From a virus (lineage: Duplodnaviria; Heunggongvirae; Uroviricota; Caudoviricetes), in IMG/VR virus record IMGVR_UViG_2576861193_000004, positions 32,001-96,000 of that record: DNA of 64,000 nt. One strand, written 5' to 3'. Below are positions 4,349-58,535 of the stretch, piece by piece. Each line of letters begins with the position of its first letter. The stretch's first letter is position 1. A program made the translations under genes and the position numbers. The notes under the pieces were generated by a model, which made no database searches, was not told where the DNA came from, and was given only the letters and a program-made list of their open reading frames with translations.

Positions 4349-4440
4349 GTTGAATATGCTCCTTGATTTGGCGGGCTATCCTTGCCCGCCATTAAGTATA
4401 TACTTACCTATTTTTACCGATATAAAATTTTTTTCCACCA

Positions 4441-7400
4441 TCACAGACGGCCAATTCTTACTCGTAAGACGTTGTTATCGTCATAAACGTCAATCCGCTG
4501 ACCATTTATAACCAATCGCCCATTGCCGCCGCTATTACCGTTGATCTCCAGCGTTCCATTTTTGCCGAACCGCCATCCAGATCTACCGCTAACAAAATTG
4601 GTAGATTGCAGATCGCCTACTTTTGCATTGGTGATTGTGCCATCCTTGATATACGCTCCATTCATATAGGCGATACTGTTTTCGATAACAAATGGCGTTG
4701 TGATCTTCCCGTTAACAGAGTTGACCAAACCAAACCTGTCCGCCTGAACCAAAAACTGAGATAGCCCAGTGGTGTCAATACCAAGCGCAATACCGGCAAC
4801 ATACTTCTGCCCTCCGCTCGTTGAAGTCTCCATTTTCAACGTCCACGCGGTTGATACTTTTTTGTTGGTATCAGCAATAGCTGTTGCCTGCTGTTGAATT
4901 GTCGCGGTATTTCCATCCACCTCTGCTTTCAGAGTATCGATTCGCCCACTCAGAGCATTATCTGCCTGCGTTCTCGCTGTCGTTTCAGTTGTTACCGCCG
5001 CGGAAATGTTGGCTGCCGTTTGAGACTCTAAGTTTGTGATTTGAGTCGCCAATGCAGCATCTTGCTCTGTACGCGTTTTCGTTTCGGTTGCTACAGCCGC
5101 TTTAATATCCTCTTTGTATTGAGAGGTCAGCTTGGTGATCTGAGACGACAACGCCGAGTCAGCATCAGTTCGAGCCTGCGTTTCAACTGCAACGGCCGCA
5201 CTAATATCTTTCGCTGTCTGTGCTTTTAAACTTGAAACCTCTTTTGTTAAAGCGGTATCACCATCTGCACGAGCCGTTGTTTCTCTGGCAAGAGACGCCT
5301 CGAGATCATTAGCTTTTGCTGTAAGAGACGTAATCTGGGTAGACAATGCACTATCGGCATCAGTCCTTGCTTTTGTCTCTACAGCAACCGCTGCGGCAAT
5401 ATCAGTTCCGGTTTGTGCTCGCAGGCTGTTAATTTCTCGTGAGAGCGCCTGGTCAGCACTTGCCCTGGCCTCCTGCTCCTGAGTGATGGCAGCGGATATA
5501 TCACCGTCAACCTTTGACTGAAGCTGGTTTATTTGTTTGGCTAACGCAGAGTCCCCGCTTGCTCGAGCCTCCTGCTCACTACGTATTGCAGCAGAAATAT
5601 CATCATCAACCTTTGCCTGAAGTTGGGTGATCTGGCTTGCCAGAGCCGAATCTTCCGTTGCTCGGGCTTCTTGCTCTTCCTTAATAGCTGCGACGATATC
5701 GTTGCTTACTTTCGACTCAAGCTGAGTGATCTGTGTCGTCAGAGCTTCATCGGCAGATGTACGAGCCTCCTGCTCTGTACTAATCGCCGCGCTGATATCT
5801 CCTTCAAACTTAGATTGCAGCTGAGTGACACGCTTTGCCAACGCTTCATCGCCATCGGCACGAGCGGTGGACTCTTCCAGAATACTGGCCTTAATGTCTT
5901 CGCCAATTTCTACGCGAATTTCCTCAACCTTCGTGGCCATTGCAGACATATCATCAGCAAAGGTTTTCTGTGTTGTTGCGATCTTCGCGTTATTGACCAT
6001 CTGCTTGTGCTGGTCTTCATCTTGACGAAGAGCCAGGTCAATATTTGTTTTGGCTAACGCCTCAATGTTCGTAGTCAGTTCTGCACTGGCACGATCGACC
6101 TCTGCAACCGTCTTTTTCATTTCTTCAACGGCAGCGGAGCTTTCCTCTACCGTTGACTGCAACACTTCCAGTTGTTTAGCGTTTGCAGCATCGCCTTCAA
6201 CACGAGCCTCGCTTTCCTTAGCAATAAGAGCCGCCGCTTCATCTCTTGCAGCCTTTATTGCCTCGACTGTATTAGCGAGAGCTTTATCGTGTTCAGATAC
6301 GGTGTTTTCGATTTCAACAATTGCAGCATCAGTAGCATCAATTTTTTCAAACGCTTCATTGACCTTGTCGATCGTTGCCGAAACCTCACCTTTAAGCTCG
6401 GTTTGTGCGTTCTCCAAAGCATCGCTACGCTCGTTGAATTTTATTTCAAAATCCGCGAGGTTATCGCTGAACTGCTTATCTAATTCAGCTATATCTTCCT
6501 TAACGTCGTTTACCGACCCCTCCAAAGATTCGACGCTCTGGTTGATATGCTCATTTAACTCGTCAACTGCTTCTTGAGAGGCTTTGCTGTTGATGTCCTC
6601 AAGCAGAGCCTGACCAAGCTCGGAAGATGTAATTTTGCCAGTCAGGAACGACAGTACATCGCGAGTTGTCGCCTCTGTACCCAAGTTTGAGTTCGGAGGA
6701 CTTAACATACCTCGCTTGTTCGATGCTCGAACCCAGTAATACCACGTTTCGCTATCCCCAAGACCAGCATGTGTAAAGGTGGTGCTTGCAGACTCTGCGA
6801 TCAGTTTCGCCGTATCCAGATTGTTGGTCTGGGATGCGTAAACATTAATGTGATCAAGGTCTACCGAATCTGGATTAACCCAATTCAGTATCACATTACG
6901 ATAGTCTCCAACGGCCGTTAATGACGTTGGGGAATCCGGCGGTGTCATTGTGCCCAACACCTGATAAACGGTACTGATAATCTCTGTTTTTTTACCGTTG
7001 AATGAAACCGCATACAGCTGGAAGTCGTAGCGTCCATTCTCCGCGACATTAACGATTTCGTATTGCTCTTCGGTTACACGCGCCGATTGCCAGTTCGATA
7101 CATTGTTTTCATCAGAACGTCGCCAACTGATCCAATACTCTGGAGATTTCCCTTCCCATGTTGCAGTCAGTTTTACTGACAGGTTGCCAGGGCTTGAGAG
7201 ATAAGTCCCTTCGGTGATTTGCAAATTAGACGGCTTGGAGTAAGTCGGGTCCAATACCGTCGTATTCTGCGGGATAAGCGTTGCACCATTGTCGATTGCC
7301 TCATATTTAGACGGATTGTTCTCAACAGCGGTGATGTCAAAGCTACCCGGCGTTTCCCCCTGCGCGATGTTAACGATGCGAACGCGCATAGGTTCGAGAT

Positions 7401-41855: not shown

Positions 41856-43889
41856 TTACTTAACCTGGTGGCCTGGTTTAGCACCAGCATCCGGGCTTAA
41901 CAGGAAGATATCTTTCCCGCCGGGGCCAGCAGCCATCACCATGCCTTCGGAGATACCGAAGCGCATTTTACGCGGAGCCAGGTTAGCCACCATAATGGTG
42001 TGACGACCAATCAGTGCCTGTGGGTCTGGATAAGCAGAACGGATGCCTGAGAAGACATTACGCTTTTCACCACCGAGATCCAGTGTCAGACGCAGCAGTT
42101 TGTCAGAACCTTCGACAAACTCCGCGTTTTCAATCAGCGCCACACGCAGGTCAACTTTGGCGAAGTCGTCAAAGGTGATGGTTTCCTGAATCGGGTCGTC
42201 AGCCAGTGGGCCAGTTACCGGTGCAGCTGTGGCTTTCACTTCTTCTTTGGATGCTTCCACCAGTGCTTCCACCTGTTTCATATCGATACGGTTATACAGT
42301 GCCTTGAACGGATTCACTTTATGGCCCAGCAGCGGTTGCTGGATACCATCCCAGGTCAGTTCTGTATTCAGGAATGCTTCTGCACGTTCAGTCAGTTTCG
42401 GCAGTACCGGTTTCAGGTACGTCATCAGCACGCGGAACAGGTTAATGCCCATAGAGCAAATCGCCTGCAGGTCGGCATCGCGGCCTTCCTGCTTCGCCAC
42501 CACCCACGGAGCCTGTTCATCAACATAGCGGTTAGCCAGGTCAGCCAGTGACATGATTTCACGGATAGCTTTGCCAAATTCGCGGCTTTCCCACGCTTCA
42601 CCAATCACTTCAGCGGCATCAGTGAAGGTTTTGTACAGTTGCGGGTCAGCCAGTTCGCTTGCCAGCACGCCGTCAAAACGTTTGTTGATAAAACCTGCAT
42701 TACGGGAGGCCAGGTTAACCACTTTGTTCACGATATCGGCATTCACGCGCTGAACAAAATCTTCCAGGTTGAGATCGATATCATCAATGCGCGAAGAGAG
42801 TTTCGCAGTGTAGTAGTAACGCAGGCTGTCGGCGTCAAAATGATTCAGCCAGGTGCTGGCTTTAATAAAGGTGCCGCGAGACTTGGACATCTTCGCGCCG
42901 TTCACCGTCACATAGCCGTGAACAAACAGGTTGGTCGGCTTGCGGAAGTTGCTGCCTTCCAGCATGGCAGGCCAGAACAGGCTGTGGAAGTAAACGATAT
43001 CTTTACCGATGAAGTGGTACAGCTCGGCGGTGGAGTCTTTCTTCCAGTATTCGTCGAAGCTGGTAGTGTCGCCGCGTTTGTCGCACAGATTCTTGAAGGA
43101 ACCCATGTAGCCAATCGGCGCGTCCAGCCAGACGTAGAAATATTTGCCCGGTGCGTTCGGAATTTCAAAACCGAAGTACGGCGCATCGCGGGAGATATCC
43201 CACTGTTGCAGGCCAGATTCAAACCACTCCTGCATTTTGTTTGCCACCTGCTCCTGCAACGCACCGCTGCGGGTCCATGCCTGCAACATTTCGCTGAAAG
43301 AGGGCAGATCAAAGAAGAAGTGTTCAGAATCACGCATTACCGGCGTAGCGCCAGAAACCACCGATTTCGGCTCGATCAATTCAGTCGGGCTATATGTTGC
43401 GCCGCAGACTTCACAGTTATCGCCGTATTGATCTGGCGCTTTACATTTAGGACAGGTGCCTTTTACAAAACGGTCCGGCAGGAACATGCCTTTTTCCGGG
43501 TCGTACAACTGAGAGATAGTGCGGTTTTTAATAAAACCGTTCTCTTTCAGGCGAGTATAGATAAGCTCAGACAACTGACGGTTCTCTTCGCTGTGCGTCG
43601 AGTGATAGTTGTCATAGCTGATGTTAAAGCCTGCGAAATCAGTCTGGTGTTCCTGACTCATTTCGCCAATCATCTGCTCCGGTGTGATACCAAGCTGCTG
43701 TGCTTTCAGCATGATCGGCGTACCGTGGGCATCGTCGGCACAGATGAAATTAACCTCGTGGCCGCGCATTCGCTGGTAACGAACCCAGACATCAGCCTGG
43801 ATGTGCTCCAGCATATGGCCGAGGTGGATTGAGCCGTTAGCGTACGGCAGCGCGCACGTCACCAGAATTTTCTTCGCGACTTGGGTCAT
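41856..43889 (-). CDS. metG: methionine--tRNA ligase
   Basis: 677-aa product essentially identical by eye to E. coli MetG ([29 protein letters not shown]...KMSKS...). Track ORF begins at an upstream in-frame start; true ATG at 43889. Confidence 0.95.
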
Positions 43890-44046
43890 AGTAGGCATTA
43901 CTTCTTTGTAGTGAAAAGGGGCTTGATAGTAACAAAATGGCCTTATGTCTGCCATGTGATAACAGCATTTCTCATAAATGATTAAATGTCGTAGCTGGAG
44001 TACACTACAAGGCGACAATTGCGCAAATTAAAATAAAGGAGACGGG

Positions 44047-45147
44047 ATGAGCGAGTCCAAATCGCCGGATGCCCTGAGAGCAATGGTAGCCGGTACGCTG
44101 GCTAATTTTCAGCACCCAACCCTGAAACACAACCTGACTACGCTTAAAGCGTTACACCATGTTGCGTTGATGGATGACACACTGCATGTCGAACTAATCA
44201 TGCCTTTCGTGTGGAATAAGCCTTTTGAAGACCTGAAAGAGCAATGTAGTGGTGATCTGCTCCGTATCACTGGCGCAAAGGCTATTGACTGGAAGCTGTC
44301 GTACAACATTGCCACGCTTAAGCGCGTCAAAAACCAACCAGGCATTAATGGCGTTAAGAACATTATCGCCGTCAGCTCAGGCAAGGGCGGCGTGGGTAAA
44401 TCCTCCACGGCGGTAAACCTGGCACTGGCGTTGGCTGCTGAAGGTGCGAAAGTTGGTATTTTGGATGCCGATATCTATGGTCCATCAATTCCAACCATGC
44501 TGGGCGCGGAAAACCAACGTCCAACCTCACCTGACGGTACTCACATGGCACCTATCATGTCTCATGGCCTGGCAACCAACTCTATTGGTTATCTGGTCAC
44601 CGACGACAATGCAATGGTGTGGCGTGGACCGATGGCCAGCAAGGCGCTGATGCAGATGTTGCAGGAAACTCTATGGCCTGATCTGGACTATCTCGTTCTC
44701 GATATGCCGCCGGGCACTGGTGATATTCAGTTGACGCTGGCGCAGAACATTCCTGTAACTGGTGCGGTTGTGGTAACTACGCCGCAAGACATCGCGCTGA
44801 TCGATGCGAAGAAAGGCATTGTGATGTTCGAAAAAGTCGAAGTGCCGGTACTGGGTATCGTCGAAAACATGAGTGTGCATATTTGCAGTAACTGCGGTCA
44901 TCACGAGCCAATTTTTGGCACCGGTGGCGCACAGAAACTGGCCGAGAAATACAACACGCAGTTGTTAGGCCAAATGCCACTTCATATCTCTCTTCGTGAA
45001 GATCTGGATAACGGAACACCAACCGTTATTAGTCGTCCAGATAGCGAATTTACGGCTATTTATCGTGACCTCGCAGATCGCGTTGCTGCCCAAATGTATT
45101 GGCAAGGTGAAGTAATACCTGGCGAAATCGCATTCCGCGCAGTGTGA
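44047..45147 (+). CDS. apbC: iron-sulfur cluster carrier protein ApbC/Mrp
   Basis: P-loop GKGGVGKSSTAVNLA, CxxC motif (CSNCGHHEP), divergent from metG as in E. coli. Confidence 0.95.
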   Translation: MSESKSPDALRAMVAGTLANFQHPTLKHNLTTLKALHHVALMDDTLHVELIMPFVWNKPFEDLKEQCSGDLLRITGAKAIDWKLSYNIATLKRVKNQPGINGVKNIIAVSSGKGGVGKSSTAVNLALALAAEGAKVGILDADIYGPSIPTMLGAENQRPTSPDGTHMAPIMSHGLATNSIGYLVTDDNAMVWRGPMASKALMQMLQETLWPDLDYLVLDMPPGTGDIQLTLAQNIPVTGAVVVTTPQDIALIDAKKGIVMFEKVEVPVLGIVENMSVHICSNCGHHEPIFGTGGAQKLAEKYNTQLLGQMPLHISLREDLDNGTPTVISRPDSEFTAIYRDLADRVAAQMYWQGEVIPGEIAFRAV

Positions 45148-45176
45148 TAAAAAGGCGGTGCATTGCACCGCCTAAT
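45148..45176 (-). terminator. hairpin terminator between apbC and the umuD'-like gene
   Basis: Perfect hairpin GGCGGTGCA-T-TGCACCGCC. The T-run lies on the minus-strand side, so it is oriented for the umuD'-like gene. Confidence 0.55.
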
Positions 45177-45184
45177 CAGTTCTC

Positions 45185-45574
45185 CTACATCACGGGACAA
45201 TCATCAAACTCGCCACTTCTTGCGTCGTTGATAATGTGAGTGATCACACCAAACACGGCATTGCTGCCCGTGCATCCATCGTCATCCTTTGGCAATGCTT
45301 CCTTCTTACCGGTTCTTAAATCCTCCAGATGCTGACGTGGGTACTTCCGGTATCTTTTTACGCGATATTCCCCATCCAGAGCGCATACAAGCAGAGAACC
45401 ATCAACCGGGGTAAGTGAGGAATCGACCACCAGCAATGCACCCTGTAATATTCCCTCACGATGATGACTATCAGCTGCCCTCATGAAGTAGGTCGCTGAA
45501 GGATGTCTAATTATCTGCTGATCAAGAGAAATACGGCTCTCAGCATAATCCGCCGCAGGAGAAGGGAAGCCCAT
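45185..45574 (-). CDS. UmuD'-like (HumD-like) S24 peptidase-fold protein lacking the N-terminal cleavable arm
   Basis: Aligns with UmuD from about residue 25 (GFPSPAADY...HPSATYF). Ser (DSH) and Lys (RVKRY) positions retained. In-frame stop 5 codons upstream of ATG, SD GAGGTG. Confidence 0.8.
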   Translation of the reverse strand: MGFPSPAADYAESRISLDQQIIRHPSATYFMRAADSHHREGILQGALLVVDSSLTPVDGSLLVCALDGEYRVKRYRKYPRQHLEDLRTGKKEALPKDDDGCTGSNAVFGVITHIINDARSGEFDDCPVM

Positions 45575-45592
45575 AGCGTTTTCACCTCAGAG

Positions 45593-45612
45593 TACTGTTT
45601 ATCCATACAGTA
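45593..45612 (-). promoter_or_regulatory. LexA (SOS) box
   Basis: TACTGTTTATCCATACAGTA matches CTGT-N8-ACAG; located about 20 bp upstream of the umuD'-like ATG. Confidence 0.75.
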
Positions 45613-45672
45613 TACATTAAAGATGCTTGAAGTGTGCAATAGCGCGATGCTTTGCGCTCGCCTGGTGGCGCG

Positions 45673-45936
45673 TTATTTTTTGGCTATATCTTCTTTCTGA
45701 TATACCGGATCGTTTCCTTTTGGCAGCAGGAGGCTTAACTGCCGGTAGTGCCGTAGCCGTTCCATGAAATAGGTGCGCAGGTTCTCAGGTTGCTCACGGG
45801 CTACCTGTTCCGCTATGACGGGTATGTTCAATCGCTCTTTGTAGGCAACCCCCCTGGCAGCCAGGTCAACGTTAACTTTATTCCTTTCTTCCTGGCTTTT
45901 AGCTGCTATGTTCCATTCGTTCATATTAAATCCCAT
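45673..45936 (-). CDS. hypothetical protein
   Basis: 87-aa ORF upstream of the LexA box and umuD'-like gene. Start uncertain (ATG 45936 or 45924), weak SD. Confidence 0.35.
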
Positions 45937-46392
45937 CCAGAATAATTGAATAACGGCTATTATTTAGTCGCCGCAATATCTTCAAAGTTTTTTTTCTCAC
46001 CCCATTGCTTTTTGCGCACAGCTTATCTGGCTTGCGGTGCGCGAAATGTAAATTCGCCTTCAGAGTTATCCACAAAGTTATGCACTTGCAACGGGGCCAT
46101 TTTCCTCATACCGTGTTTGCACACACAGGAAATGGATATTTTATTAATTGAATTTTATTAAATAATAATGATAAGGAGAAAATTTGAGATGTAATCATGA
46201 CATTAATAGATAGGGCCTGCATTACAGGCCCCAACTACATCAAGGAATTCACAGTTCCCTGATTTTTATACCGAAAACATGTGCCGTAAGTTCACGTTAA
46301 CGACTTTCTTTCACCGAATCCAACTATATAGAGGTTGGGTTTCTACGTCAACGTGAGAGCACGCAGCTTTACATTAGACGAGGATTACCCTG

Positions 46393-56516: not shown

Positions 56517-56914
56517 GAGAACTGTCCTTGTGTGTCCGGGTTTCACGCAACACACGAGAAGCGACGCTATTACGCACCTTCTCCATGCCTACTGTCGTGC
56601 CCAGATTAGCTATGGCGGTAGCTTGCGCATTAATGCGCTTCTCCAGTTCAAACACTCGTTCTTCCAGTTCCGTAAGGCGTGCGGAAACACGACCACTAAA
56701 CAGCTCGGTCAGCACCAGGCGAATTGAACGGGGACGTTTATTGAAAGAAGTGAAAGACGTTTGACGGGCCATGTGGATTCCATTCAGTGTCAGAAAGAGT
56801 TGCGGCTGGCCAAGCCAGCCGCCTTTTGGCGTTCCATCCTGGAACCGTACCTAACCGGTACTTCGTCATCCTGACGATTTATAAGATACCTGATTTATTA
56901 TAGTGGGTAAATAC

Positions 56915-57523
56915 TTACTTATCTTTTTGTGACAAAAACCCAATGTCATGCTTGTGAGGCATATCAGCTGCGGAATAGGCGGCGATCTTCGCCAGACGGT
57001 CACACATTTCGTTCTCGCGATGACCTGCATGGCCTTTAACCCACTTCCAGCGGACATTATGACGACTGGCGGCCGCGTCGAGACGTTTCCAGAGATCCAC
57101 GTTTTTGACTGGCTTCTTCTCAGACGTGATCCATCCGTTACGCTTCCAGCCTTTCATCCAGAGCGTCATGCCGTTTTTAAGATACTGGCTGTCGGAATGC
57201 AGGATCACGTTGCAGGGGTACTTCAGACGCTCCAGCGCAATCAGGGCGCCCATCATCTCCATCCGATTGTTGGTCGTGCTGTGAAAGCCCTCAGAAAGCT
57301 CGCGCTCTTCGCCTCGATACTGGAGAACGATGCCGTAACCGCCCGGCCCGCCCGGATTTTTGAGGCAAGAGCCATCACTGAATACTTTTACGGTTTTGAG
57401 CTGGGGATTGAACTCGACTACGGGGGTTTTGAAGTTGGTACGGGATTGCTGGTGGGTTTGGTATCTGGCTTTGGACTTCGTGCGGCAGCCAGTATGTTGC
57501 CGGGCTGGGGTCTTGGTCGTCAT
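56915..57523 (-). CDS. ribonuclease H (RNase HI family) with N-terminal basic extension
   Basis: RNase HI core motifs ([53 protein letters not shown]). ATG 57523 with SD GGAG; track start 57580 is GTG. Confidence 0.85.
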
Positions 57524-57552
57524 TTTGGCTCCAGAATCGCGCGCCGCGACGA

Positions 57553-57591
57553 TTTTTTTTTCCCTCGCGCGTGTGCGCACGCGTGCGTGTA
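57553..57591. promoter_or_regulatory. T9 homopolymer followed by a 26-bp perfectly alternating pyrimidine-purine GC-rich tract
   Basis: Read directly: TTTTTTTTT then CGCGCGTGTGCGCACGCGTGCGTGTA, containing the 12-bp palindrome CGCACGCGTGCG. Lies 20-60 bp upstream of the RNase H ATG. Confidence 0.6.
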
Positions 57592-58117
57592 AATATTAAA
57601 AATTTTTTAGAAAAGAAAAATTACTTCCCAGAACAGGTTTTAATAAAACCTGAACTGAACGAACGAAGTGAGTGAAGTTCACCTCGAACGAAGTGAGAGG
57701 TTGTCTTTTCAGGTAATACTCTCCCAGGGAGGTGAGTACAAAATTACCTCACCAACCTGGTCGTTTCATAACCTGAAAAGTTATGACCTAAGTCTACTGC
57801 CAGCTTAGGCTTGGGAAGTTATGGATGACAGCACCCCAGAACCGAGATCTTCCCACACTTTATGAAGGGGAGTACTGGATTCAACCTCTCGAAACACTCC
57901 AGACTCGACAATCATAAAGTGACCCTTCTCTCTGCCCACTTTGGTTCCCCCTTCCCCAACCCCTAAACGGTGCCGGTTCTACGCTGGTAGTGAGCTTTTT
58001 TAAACCTGACGCCAGTGACGCTATCCCCCACCCATCAGGTCGAGCTGCCAAAAGTATCCGGAAGCGGATAGATTGTATCACTGGTTAGTGGTGTTTTGAA
58101 TGGTAAGTACTTACATA

Positions 58118-58348
58118 TTATATTGATTGATTAATTTCTCGCCCATGAAGCTGGACGTTCAGGGCAAACACCTCATTGATGAGTTCCCCTAACAGCTGCT
58201 CCACCAGCTCTTTGTGCTCGCCTGAATGAAGACATTTGAGCGACCATTCGTAGAGACTGAAAGCCTTATCGCGATCTTTCATCATGTCGCGCACTGTGGC
58301 CAGAAAATCGCTCTCAACGAGCGCTACGACGTTCGTCGGGTATACCAT
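58118..58348 (-). CDS. hypothetical protein
   Basis: 76-aa ORF downstream of the compound inverted-repeat element. Confidence 0.4.
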   Translation of the reverse strand: MVYPTNVVALVESDFLATVRDMMKDRDKAFSLYEWSLKCLHSGEHKELVEQLLGELINEVFALNVQLHGREINQSI

Positions 58349-58431
58349 GATAGTTTTCCTTACTGTGGTTCATAAAATCGATTCTAGAGCGTCTGGAGAG
58401 GGGCTCCAGTAGGTTCTGAAGGTGTAAAACG

Positions 58432-58535
58432 GTCTGGGAGTTGTTTGGAAATCACGTCTTAAAAAGCCTGCGTCTGTATATATTAATAATTAGTACTTAG
58501 TTATTTATATATACGGAAGCAGGTTCTCAAACTAA
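58432..58535. promoter_or_regulatory. compound inverted-repeat element (copy 2), upstream of the 58118-58348 gene
   Basis: Same nested architecture and about 80 percent identity by eye to the 26808-26904 element. Confidence 0.65.

Follow-up and report, generated by a model that had tools for sequence, protein, structure and literature searches.

The segment between the genes for RNase HI and a 76-aa protein in the 64,000-nt stretch of viral DNA analysed here (the window) most likely encodes, on its minus strand, a highly structured non-coding RNA of about 455 nt that is transcribed as a unit of its own and most likely acts in trans by binding a protein or a larger machine. We assign this reading a probability of about 0.6. 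The whole RNA is predicted to occupy positions 57609–58065 (minus strand), beginning at the proposed transcription start and including the U tract of the terminator, as indicated by the promoter, the terminator fold, the consensus structure with its covariation, and RNA-seq data of the orthologous locus of Cyrano. The window is 100% identical to the E. coli plasmid pYLPD4a, an SSU5/pHCM2-type phage-plasmid, and 96.6% identical to Salmonella phage SSU5.

The downstream neighbour encodes a canonical RNase HI, extended at its N-terminus by a basic stretch of about 43 aa (56915–57523, minus strand; PF00075 over residues 44–182, E = 6.8e-46; phrog_531). The upstream neighbour (58118–58348, minus strand; phrog_5343) encodes the 76-aa protein, whose function is unknown and which showed no match in Pfam. 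In the sequence-only reading the segment was delimited at 57600–58110. A conserved unit is indeed located there, but its true boundaries differ: the transcription unit spans from about 58115, with an operator-like palindrome and a promoter, to about 57609 at the end of the U tract. Between this unit and the start of RNase H at 57523, immediately ahead of the ribosome-binding site for RNase H, lies a GC-rich purine/pyrimidine block (57537–57592). It contains the palindrome CGCACGCGTGCG (57576–57587), found once in the window, an A/T homopolymer (57553–57561) and a GC hairpin, and is kept in all lineages with a homopolymer of 5 to 9. Because it folds no better than shuffled sequences (z = +0.55), the block looks like a DNA-level site rather than an RNA structure. 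It is an adjacent feature, and its membership in the RNA unit is uncertain.

It had been claimed that no ORF of 60 aa or more occurs in the segment. This was incorrect, as the ORF listing contains a 66-aa ORF starting with GTG (57881–58081, minus strand); moreover, a GTG would allow the RNase H frame to begin further upstream, reaching 57580. Among 61 distinct homologous sequences, no ORF on either strand was intact throughout, and the seven small candidates were broken in 14 to 57 of them. The segment is still considered non-coding because no small ORF is intact across the homologs. A conserved small protein, which had been named as one of the findings that would refute the proposal, did not emerge from these seven ORFs. 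A small-protein gene at this locus, or several of them, such as the 44-aa ORF CYRAN_81 of Cyrano or the 66-aa ORF, is hardly credible. A 44-aa CDS is annotated there and the locus is transcribed, but frameshifts or truncations affect this ORF in 15 of the 61 sequences and the 66-aa ORF in 50; furthermore, the substitutions spare no reading frame and one-base indels are tolerated.

A core of 386 nt (57655–58040) shows 91–99% identity between lineages. For the adjacent RNase H gene in the same lineages, synonymous third positions are 48–62% identical and first and second codon positions 89–95%. The RNA is the most conserved sequence in the stretch of about 3 kb that was compared across lineages. 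It was found in 687 plasmids of PLSDB from Klebsiella, Escherichia, Enterobacter, Salmonella (including Typhi), Citrobacter and Cronobacter, and in 232 of 5,426 complete E. coli genomes. In every family member, as seen in 171 extracted full-length copies and in 73 distinct sequences, the RNA lies in the same orientation directly upstream of RNase H. Another phage (L022) possesses a 94%-identical RNase H without the RNA. Since the variable hairpins follow the lineages of the flanking genes, the block was inherited vertically.

Wider searches added little to this distribution. Two Kluyvera contigs were the only result of the genome-contig search, the 34 matches of the metagenome search contained no new lineage, and the viral-contig search returned the SSU5-type contigs already found and nothing further. 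Loci located through their proteins added a single lineage of real divergence (L163/L164) and, on a chromosome, one decayed copy (L168). L166 and L167 have an RNA-like but unrelated region in the corresponding place. No homologs beyond SSU5-type elements were detected in the virus, metagenome and genome scans, and no similarity to the E. coli chromosome, which might have indicated host mimicry, was found at E ≤ 0.1. Judged from these sequence searches, the RNA family is narrow and appears specific to SSU5/pHCM2-type phage-plasmids. It also belongs to no known RNA family: no match was obtained with the 4227 models of Rfam 15 at gathering thresholds over the whole window, permissive filters over 57300–58500 yielded only three chance matches to microRNA/lncRNA models (E = 2.6–3.8), and the RNA regions of L163, L166 and L168 gave nothing. 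The Rfam hit that had been named as a refutation was thus not found. ARAGORN detected no tRNA or tmRNA gene in the window, RefSeq carries no annotation at the RNA locus, and the literature search found no paper describing the RNA.

Several observations show that the conserved entity is a folded RNA of the minus strand. The gene-sense strand folds with z = -4.18 versus -2.74 for the plus strand. The consensus structure comprises 129 pairs in 16 predicted helices, with 99.2% of cells canonical. Double compensatory changes occur at 9 pairs (29 cells) versus 4.5 and 6.8 in shuffled alignments; none of 500 shuffles matched the observed values, and slid controls gave 1–3 pairs. With G-U pairs in 11.6% of cells, the opposite strand is canonical in only 87.8%. 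Compensatory change is thus above background and specific to one strand, with informative variation in about 6 of the 16 helices, most helices being invariant. This covariation stems from few lineages (the Klebsiella clade, the Salmonella Anatum clade and L163) and hence represents few independent events. In L163, whose RNase H is 68% identical in protein and whose RNA is 80–85% identical, the helices are preserved by further compensatory changes; in the chromosomal relic L168 they are broken. Together with the published transcript signal, these results support the structured RNA that had been one of three proposals for the segment.

The predicted fold can be described domain by domain from the 5' end. 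At the predicted transcription start, the terminal hairpin P1 (58044–58065, minus strand) is hypervariable in sequence, and its stem is always kept: 11 sequence variants from different lineages all form a hairpin of 6–11 bp at the same position, with the pair types CG/UA/AU/GC/UG in its columns. The hairpin P2, GACCUGAUGGGUGG...CACUGGCGUCAGGUU (58003–58041, minus strand; helix 1), consists of 15 pairs and is paired in 100%; three of its pairs are changed on both sides (AU<->GC, CG<->UA), and L163 adds UG->AU. The P3 domain (57934–57995, minus strand; helices 2–4) is composed of an outer helix, an inner helix and a G-rich internal loop, with UA/CG/UG at one pair and GU/GC/AU in the inner helix. 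The central multi-helix junction (57695–57932, minus strand; helices 5–14) has arms at 57921–57856, 57855–57812, 57810–57786 and 57780–57705, and two of its helices correspond to the inverted repeats I3 and I5 of the repeat search. Changes of CG<->UA occur once in helix 7 and twice in helix 12, while L163 shows U-A->A-U, G-C->A-U and the paired deletion of one C-G pair.

Towards the 3' end, a hairpin (57660–57690, minus strand) contains both direct repeats noticed earlier, CUCACUUCGUUCG twice in RNA sense, and the palindrome between them. On the plus strand, inspection of the sequence and the repeat search confirmed the two copies of CGAACGAAGTGAG at 57660–57672 and 57685–57697, flanking the palindrome GTGAAGTTCAC at 57673–57683. 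This hairpin and the repeats are invariant in the main family, and L163 keeps only one copy of the repeat. The 10 pairs of helix 15, which forms the hairpin, never vary, and their pairing is therefore unproven. By eye, a candidate anti-Shine-Dalgarno mimic, UCACCUCC, and a T-loop-like sequence, GGUUGAAUCC, were also spotted in the segment. A tertiary pairing of GAAGGGG with CCCCUUC, both of which are invariant in the alignment, is suspected as well.

The C-rich tract at about 57946–57965 had likewise been described correctly; on the gene-sense strand it reads GGGGTTGGGGAAGGGGG. Its proposed formation of a G-quadruplex was not supported, as only GGGGAAGGGGGAACC is invariant in this part of P3, even in L163 and the decayed L168, and the first and fourth G runs are not conserved. 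Instead of four conserved runs of at least three G, GGGGAAGGGGG alone is invariant. The first run reads GGUGUC in 22–23 of the 61 sequences (E. coli clade) and is placed in a helix by covariation, and the sole candidate for a fourth run, GUGGGC, has the form GUGAGC in 37 of the 61.

The RNA most probably has a promoter of its own. A predicted sigma-70 promoter (58072–58100, minus strand) consists of a -35 element TTCAAA (58100–58095), a 17-nt spacer and an extended -10 element TG-A-TACAAT (-10 at 58077–58072), the scan match having TG ahead of the -10. The pattern TGnTAnnAT with TTnAnA is retained in nearly all lineages while the surrounding bases vary. The exception is the Klebsiella clade, in which TG abuts TAGAAT directly and the spacer base is absent; the orthologous promoter there scores too (TTTACG-17-TAGAAT, seen in L064). 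A promoter of its own that is conserved across lineages is a property of an independent non-coding RNA gene. The sole plus-strand promoter-like site in the consensus scan, which a weak promoter could escape, lies at 58096–58124 and faces away from the RNA.

Abutting the -35 element is an operator-like palindrome, GGTAAGTACTTAC(A) (58102–58115), with about 9–12 similar copies in the window. At up to 3 mismatches 12 matches were counted versus 1.17 expected, and none of 100 shuffles reached 12. About 9 of the 12 copies are intergenic and, read on the gene-sense strand, agree in a longer consensus, AAAATA-GGTAAGTAnnTACY-TA. The palindrome thus belongs to the GGTAAGTAnnTACC sites repeated in the genome. 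The GTAAGTACTTAC palindrome, which had been regarded as the end of the segment, is present at 58104–58115; it is not a part of the RNA but this repeated motif, situated just upstream of the RNA promoter.

At the other end, an intrinsic terminator is predicted (57609–57669, minus strand), which is composed of a long interrupted hairpin (57669–57623; -16 kcal/mol, z = -4.3) followed by AAUUUUUCUUUUCU. Its apical stem (helix 16) shows UA<->GC changes, and L163 has a different long hairpin and a U run in the same place.

The locus is expressed separately from its neighbours in lysogens. CYRAN_81 was annotated as a 44-aa ORF within the block of Cyrano that is orthologous to the RNA locus (PMC9928086). 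In E. coli LF82 lysogens of Cyrano it had 117 normalised reads, in comparison to 9.5 for the upstream gene and 8.4, corresponding to background, for RNase H; this locus-level signal, which leaves the strand open, is about 12–14 times that of both neighbours (PMC9928086). CYRAN_81 is among the few Cyrano loci expressed in dormancy, and in macrophages, where it was induced in one data set, its log2 FPKM reached up to 10.3 with neighbours at 2.6–5.8 (PMC9928086). A terminator of its own and a transcript level distinct from the neighbours are in agreement with an independent RNA gene, the ends of which are predicted. In being expressed in lysogens with the downstream genes off (PMC9928086), the locus resembles the immunity RNAs P4 CI, P1 c4 and N15 CA.

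These data bear on a very improbable explanation, namely that the block acts as DNA (a site for packaging, an array bound by protein, or an initiation signal folded as single-stranded DNA) or was recently spread by recombination, and that its conservation is unrelated to RNA. The invariant 3' part, a palindrome between direct repeats, resembles a protein-binding site; phage genomes are mosaic, and a folded single-stranded DNA signal would covary too. On the other hand, the limits of conservation coincide with the promoter and the terminator, the block descended vertically with its flanking genes, the G-U cells are strand-specific, and the transcript is about 12 times more abundant than those of the neighbours. 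In addition, near-invariance over 450 nt far exceeds that of known pac or ssi sites.

A more serious alternative, which we nevertheless consider unlikely, is a function in cis: the RNase H operon would have the RNA as its long 5' leader, and the terminator would be the point of control, shut during lysogeny and overcome by read-through or anti-termination after induction. This would resemble the 6S leader of lambda PR' or the immunity RNAs P4 CI, P1 c4 and N15 CA, and P1, P4 and N15 are plasmid-prophages too. The constant position and orientation upstream of RNase H would fit such a leader, as would a high RNA level with silent downstream genes in lysogens. Moreover, the promoter scan detected no sigma-70-like promoter between the RNA terminator and RNase H; expression of RNase H may therefore need read-through, a point in favour of action in cis. 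Copy 2 of the direct repeat has two possible places to pair, one within the 3' hairpin and one at the terminator base, and these pairings exclude each other; however, the repeat needed for this switch is absent from L163. The RNA is also about 6 times larger than the immunity RNAs of P4, P1 and N15, it matches no riboswitch or leader family, and near-total invariance over about 390 nt far exceeds the needs of an attenuator. The occurrence of RNase H without the RNA in L022 was likewise counted for an independence of the RNA from RNase H in cis.

Complementary targets, as used by the immunity RNAs, were not evident either. Exact complementary 11–12-mers in the window were as frequent as expected by chance (about 13), and a search of the reconstructed 112-kb plasmid for ungapped duplexes of at least 13 nt, in which G-U pairs were permitted, yielded nothing convincing; the best one (18 nt, 15 Watson-Crick pairs) includes a variable loop. 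In the window and the 112-kb plasmid, complementarity to any site, including the RNase H leader, did not exceed chance. Two further candidates were rejected. A CsrA sponge is not indicated, as the approximately 7 GGA motifs in about 440 nt correspond to chance level. Type III toxin-antitoxin systems of the ToxIN type consist of tandem RNA repeats of about 30–40 nt upstream of a ToxN/AbiQ-type endoribonuclease toxin; here, only two 13-nt repeats, 25 nt apart, precede a canonical RNase HI (PF00075).

The proximity of RNase HI raises the further, very unlikely explanation that the transcript is a replication pre-primer or forms an R-loop origin, as known from ColE1 RNA II, T4 oriF/oriG or mitochondrial CSBII. 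The G-rich transcript would stay on its template, and the neighbouring RNase H would cut it and thereby prime DNA synthesis. An RNA II-like size, an own promoter, stem-loops at the 5' end, G clusters in the first 130 nt, an AT-rich stretch beyond the 3' end and the RNase HI gene immediately downstream are in line with this, and the element possesses its own replisome (DnaE, a DnaB-like helicase, ligase and a 5'-3' exonuclease). Against it, the RepA replicon is located 14.7 kb away and differs in type between lineages sharing the RNA (IncFIB, rep_cluster_488, rep_cluster_763). No DnaA box was found within 11 kb, the repeat search revealed no iterons nearby, and the GC skew does not turn at the site; the proposals of an origin or a packaging site are thus unsupported. 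Only one block of G runs is conserved, the transcript is ended by a terminator hairpin, not at a C-rich template that would form a hybrid, and compensatory changes along the full length point to a folded free RNA. Hence the characteristics of an RNA II-type primer, which is the initiator of its replicon, has the origin at its 3' end and needs no Rep, were not found. Taken together, the observations of the sequence-only reading were partly confirmed and its interpretation was partly supported.

Our best guess is a trans-acting RNA of the lysogenic state that has a conserved partner; the terminator of this RNA would also protect the RNase H operon downstream. The host sigma-70 extended -10 promoter would fire in the plasmid (lysogenic) state, and it would adjoin the genome-wide operator-like palindrome rather than lie beneath it. 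The transcript would open with the P1 stem-loop, which may protect the 5' end by analogy with other stable bacterial RNAs, and would continue with the second hairpin, the G-rich internal-loop domain, the four-arm central junction and the 3' hairpin. The intrinsic terminator would keep RNase H and the lytic replication genes free of transcription. In the dormant phage-plasmid, the RNA would most likely act in trans, serving as a scaffold for a ribonucleoprotein or as a decoy, with the invariant single-stranded GGGGAAGGGGGAACC, CUCCCCUUC and CUCACUUCGUUCG as putative contact surfaces. Near-invariance of the RNA between hosts could be explained by a partner that would itself be conserved across Enterobacteriaceae.

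More tentatively, the RNA may represent a new class of large folded bacterial RNA, a ribonucleoprotein scaffold or a ribozyme, through which these widespread clinical plasmids would address a conserved host machine in order to manage their plasmid-prophage lifestyle. If this is true, candidates for the machine include the apparatus for transcription, translation, RNA decay or defence, and a constraint above that of the first and second codon positions of RNase H would reflect a three-dimensional structure with contacts at almost every nucleotide. New bacterial RNAs of more than 400 nt with a complex fold are rare, and earlier ones led to new biochemistry. SSU5/pHCM2-type phage-plasmids are common in clinical Enterobacteriaceae and are known carriers of resistance genes. 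The finding corrects the annotation of a locus that is currently annotated as nothing or as a spurious 44-aa protein, and the RNA gives direct experimental access to the maintenance of lysogeny, the manipulation of the host or immunity in phage-plasmids. It could also serve as an extremely conserved diagnostic marker of the SSU5-type plasmid family.

Among known systems, the immunity RNAs P4 CI, P1/P7 c4 and N15 CA resemble the RNA in being non-coding, in belonging to phages living as plasmids and in being made in lysogeny; they also lie in the same orientation just upstream of silent lytic or replication genes and are followed by a termination point. They differ in their size of about 70–80 nt and in pairing with repeated targets in their operons, whereas the RNA described here has about 455 nt in several domains, lacks a complementary target in the 112-kb element and shows no sequence or Rfam relationship to them. 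ColE1 RNA II shares the length of several hundred nucleotides, a constitutive promoter of its own, 5' stem-loops and G-rich segments. RNA II is functionally tied to RNase H, while only adjacency is seen here; moreover, the RepA replicon is located elsewhere, the RNA ends in a terminator hairpin, the consensus promoter scan showed no antisense unit like RNA I, and no sign of an origin at the 3' end was seen.

The units for lambda 6S and oop are likewise placed between phage genes and have a host-type promoter and an intrinsic terminator. These RNAs comprise 77–194 nt with little structure beyond the terminator, in contrast to the 16 helices predicted here and to a conservation well beyond that of the surrounding coding sequence. 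GOLLD, ROOL, OLE, raiA and HEARO are similar in that they are unusually large, intricate and strongly conserved bacterial RNAs, borne by mobile elements, often phages or prophages, and with a function that is not obvious from the context. The RNA described here differs from them by having no Rfam match and by its occurrence in phage-plasmids of Enterobacteriaceae rather than mainly in Firmicutes and others; GOLLD and ROOL are larger, and it is not located beside tRNA genes.

The gap between the gene for a 76-aa protein (58118-58348, minus strand) and the RNase HI gene (56915-57523, minus strand) encodes an RNA on the gene-sense (minus) strand. A promoter scan revealed a sigma-70 promoter (TTCAAA, 17 nt, TG-A-TACAAT; 58100-58072, minus strand), whose extended -10 (TGnTAnnAT) and -35 (TTnAnA) elements are preserved in nearly all lineages despite differing surrounding bases. 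In the Klebsiella clade, TG immediately abuts TAGAAT, and this orthologue also scores in the scan. Transcription is predicted to start near 58065, at the base that opens the first hairpin. The 3' terminator consists of a long, interrupted hairpin (57669-57623, minus strand; -16 kcal/mol, z = -4.3) and the AAUUUUUCUUUUCU that follows it, and the diverged lineage L163 possesses a different long hairpin and a U run at this position. From the predicted start and the terminator, the RNA therefore comprises about 455 nt. A promoter-like site inside the RNA (TGGGCA-16-TATGAT; 57911-57938, minus strand) is conserved in the scanned relatives L001 and L064; it may have arisen by chance and been retained with the RNA, or it might yield a shorter 3' isoform of about 290-300 nt.

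Independent experimental support for transcription of the locus comes from published data on the phage-plasmid Cyrano in E. coli LF82. There, the 44-aa ORF CYRAN_81, annotated in the orthologous block, is listed as a lysogen-expressed gene, 12-fold over the local background (PMC9928086). CYRAN_81 had 117 normalised reads, which may stem from either strand, whereas the upstream gene had 9.5 and RNase H 8.4; six hours into macrophage infection, the log2 FPKM of CYRAN_81 rose to 10.3 (neighbours 2.6-5.8) (PMC9928086).

The minus strand folds more stably than shuffled sequences (z = -4.18) and outdoes the plus strand (z = -2.74). RNAalifold analysis of 23 representative sequences yielded 129 pairs in 16 helices, of which about ten are invariant, so that their pairing is predicted only, the informative changes coming from a handful of lineages. 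Standard pairs make up 99.2% of the cells in this alignment. Both sides were changed in nine pairs (29 cells; shuffles 4.5 and 6.8), values reached in none of 500 shuffles, and 1-3 double-changed pairs remained in a control with the partners slid by 1-3 columns. Because G-U pairs account for 11.6% of the cells, the mirrored structure on the opposite strand is only 87.8% canonical. The clearest case is the first hairpin, for which eleven different lineage sequences each form a stem of 6-11 bp at the same site. In L163 and L164, found via RNase H at 68% protein identity, the RNA is 80-85% identical and its helices are maintained by further compensatory changes (a U-A to A-U swap, G-C to A-U, and paired loss of a C-G). 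Strand-specific folding, compensatory changes and the transcript signal bear out the structured RNA, which the sequence-only reading had listed among several options.

A natural example of the locus free of selection is present in the E. coli chromosome CP125919.1 (402262-408870), an integrated, gene-poor SSU5-type remnant. In its 74%-identical copy of the RNA (L168), the source of many unpaired cells in a 12-sequence alignment, whole segments are swapped out and many helices disrupted. The copy is evidently decaying, and broken helices are expected without selection.

On the minus strand, the RNA begins with the 5' hairpin P1 (58065-58044) and P2 (58041-58003), and an A-rich linker leads to a domain with the invariant GGGGAAGGGGGAACC in an internal loop (57995-57934). 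A central junction follows (57932-57695; arms 57921-57856, 57855-57812, 57810-57786 and 57780-57705), and then a 3' hairpin (57690-57660) and the terminator. The 3' hairpin consists of the direct repeat CGAACGAAGTGAG, noticed previously and located at 57660-57672 and 57685-57697; the palindrome between both copies, the C-rich tract and the GTAAGTACTTAC palindrome are likewise present as described. The G-rich loop contains GAAGGGG, which could form a tertiary pairing with the complementary CCCCUUC at ~57870; both sequences are invariant. The 3' base of the terminator stem consists of the invariant UGGGAAGUAAU (57620-57630), which is also complementary at 10 of 11 positions to AUAACUUCCCA (57812-57822), the 3' arm of junction arm 57812-57855; this putative alternative long-range pairing would compete with the junction-arm helix and the terminator.

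Across eight aligned relatives, 50-nt bins show a column identity of 91-99% at 57650-58045 and of 78-94% in the flanking genes. Between lineages, the RNase H gene is 89-95% identical at first and second codon positions and only 48-62% at synonymous third positions; in the same comparisons the 386-nt core (57655-58040) is 91-99% identical. Compared to Cyrano, the core shows 99.0% identity and synonymous sites 54%. The limits of the block coincide exactly with the promoter at one end and the terminator at the other. Because three short hairpin tips within the unit vary along with the flanking-gene lineages, the pattern argues for vertical inheritance under strong constraint rather than a recent recombinational sweep. 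That this constraint reflects small proteins is most improbable: among 61 distinct homologs, each of the seven candidate ORFs is disrupted in 14-57. These include a 66-aa GTG ORF (57881-58081, minus strand), which slightly corrects the earlier statement that no ORF of 60 aa or more exists, and the ORF named CYRAN_81 by the Cyrano annotators, with a frameshift or truncation in 15 of the 61. The data show a separately transcribed, terminated, folded and non-coding RNA, present in lysogens, with its ends predicted.

No Rfam family matched the window, the locus or the RNA regions of L163, L166 and L168 at any useful threshold, no tRNA or tmRNA occurs in the window, and no similarity to E. coli chromosomal sequence was found. 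A ToxIN-like repeat array was rejected from the repeat content of the locus. The G-quadruplex proposed earlier is not supported, as in the E. coli clade GGUGUC stands in place of the first G run and is part of a covarying helix, and the sole possible fourth run is gone in most sequences. An origin is likewise unsupported: no DnaA box exists within 11 kb, neither iterons nor a skew change were found at the locus, repA is 14.7 kb away and the carriers differ in replicon type. An RNA II-like primer is accordingly improbable; a DNA-level site is slightly more so, and the packaging site suggested before was judged wrong. Each of these, like the small proteins, is less likely than a trans-acting RNA or a cis-acting leader.

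Since 1 kb around the locus is 96.6% identical to Salmonella phage SSU5 and the RNA region 100% identical to E. coli plasmid pYLPD4a (NZ_CP074008.1), the window belongs to an SSU5/pHCM2-type phage-plasmid. The locus lies within a minus-strand series of early and replication genes (3'-5' exonuclease, adenine methyltransferase, 76-aa protein, gap, RNase HI, TerB/TciA-like proteins). According to the pYLPD4a annotation, the phage-plasmid also carries host-type genes for methionine-tRNA ligase (metG) and ApbC, an iron-sulfur carrier (window ~42666-44699 and 44857-45957; record 82576-85867), together with a type I restriction-modification system (record 87001-93012) and a DNA polymerase III theta subunit. 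In PLSDB, the RNA was found in 687 plasmids (Klebsiella 310, Escherichia 195, Enterobacter 88, Salmonella 49, Citrobacter 24, Cronobacter 10, others). It also occurs in 12 phage records, 74 IMG/VR stretches, 34 metagenome contigs (mainly human gut), two Kluyvera species representatives and 232 complete E. coli genomes; among the matches listed for the latter, RefSeq annotates nothing under the match. There is one copy per searched record, with a second matching place in two records.

It is likely, with a probability of about 0.6, that this folded lysogenic RNA acts in trans on a conserved partner while its terminator additionally insulates the RNase H operon. The RNA would serve as a binding platform or decoy, and its partner would be conserved across Enterobacteriaceae. 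This reading is based on a conservation that, from Cronobacter to Klebsiella, is higher than at first and second codon positions, a level typical of RNAs whose tertiary structure is intricate and whose macromolecular partners are fixed. The main rival, a cis-acting leader or attenuator of RNase H, is rather unlikely. RNase H follows the RNA in all copies whose downstream flank could be inspected, and no recognisable promoter separates it from the terminator; however, the size of the RNA and the lack of target complementarity speak against it, and another phage (L022) has a 94%-identical RNase H without the RNA. No antisense target was detectable across the 112-kb plasmid. In two IMG/VR stretches (3300011640_000018 and 3300045988_161591; 450-2500), an insert of about 2 kb, probably an insertion sequence disrupting RNase H, separates the intact, unaltered RNA from the C-terminal half of RNase H, of which only residues 97-200 are still contiguous.

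The palindrome GGTAAGTACTTACC is a repeated motif, with 12 matches (≤3 mismatches) in the window compared to 1.17 expected. The 14-nt sites are located at 4395, 17812, 21387, 23303, 24810, 38014, 56906, 58102 and 59160, and weaker ones at 5451, 35779 and 51357; about nine of the 12 are intergenic and, on the gene-sense strand, have the extended consensus AAAATA-GGTAAGTAnnTACY-TA in common. The site at the RNA promoter (58102) lies upstream of the -35, and those at 56906 and 59160 overlap or adjoin a promoter or start-codon region. The motif resembles a multi-copy operator or a promoter element specific to the phage, in a layout comparable to the scattered C1 operators of phage P1. A similar site, ATAGGTAAGTGCTTATCTA, occurs upstream of the RNase H homolog in the unrelated contig L022 (~2352-2376).

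A conserved GC-rich block of alternating purines and pyrimidines (57537-57592), immediately preceding the ribosome-binding site of RNase H, could potentially form Z-DNA; its folding as RNA does not surpass that of shuffled sequences. It contains the perfect palindrome CGCACGCGTGCG, unique in the window, beside a GC hairpin and an A/T homopolymer of 5 to 9 residues that differs in length among otherwise near-identical sequences. The block could be an operator or a phase-variable spacer, or the homopolymer mere sequencing noise.

In the distant relatives L166 (1765-2476) and L167 (Logan assemblies SRR29676975 and SRR27492615), whose RNase H is 62% identical to that of the window, a different sequence occupies the matching position, flanked by a 74-aa gene on one side and a tandem pair of RNase H genes on the other. 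It is ORF-free, about 440 nt long, folds strongly (z = -5.2), is preceded by a GTTTGTAGTTACC motif and starts with a hairpin. It showed no similarity to the RNA by nhmmer and no PLSDB or Rfam match, and may represent another, analogous family of RNAs. In L163, a long near-perfect hairpin of about 120 nt (2010-2130), located upstream of the 74-aa gene, gave chance microRNA-precursor matches on both strands (E down to 1e-4, far under the gathering score).

The RNA gene is real, unannotated and probably important, and no description of it was found in searchable databases or literature. Phage-encoded non-coding RNAs produced in lysogeny are already known as a kind; in size, fold and degree of constraint, however, nothing comparable to this RNA has been described from phages or plasmids of enterobacteria.
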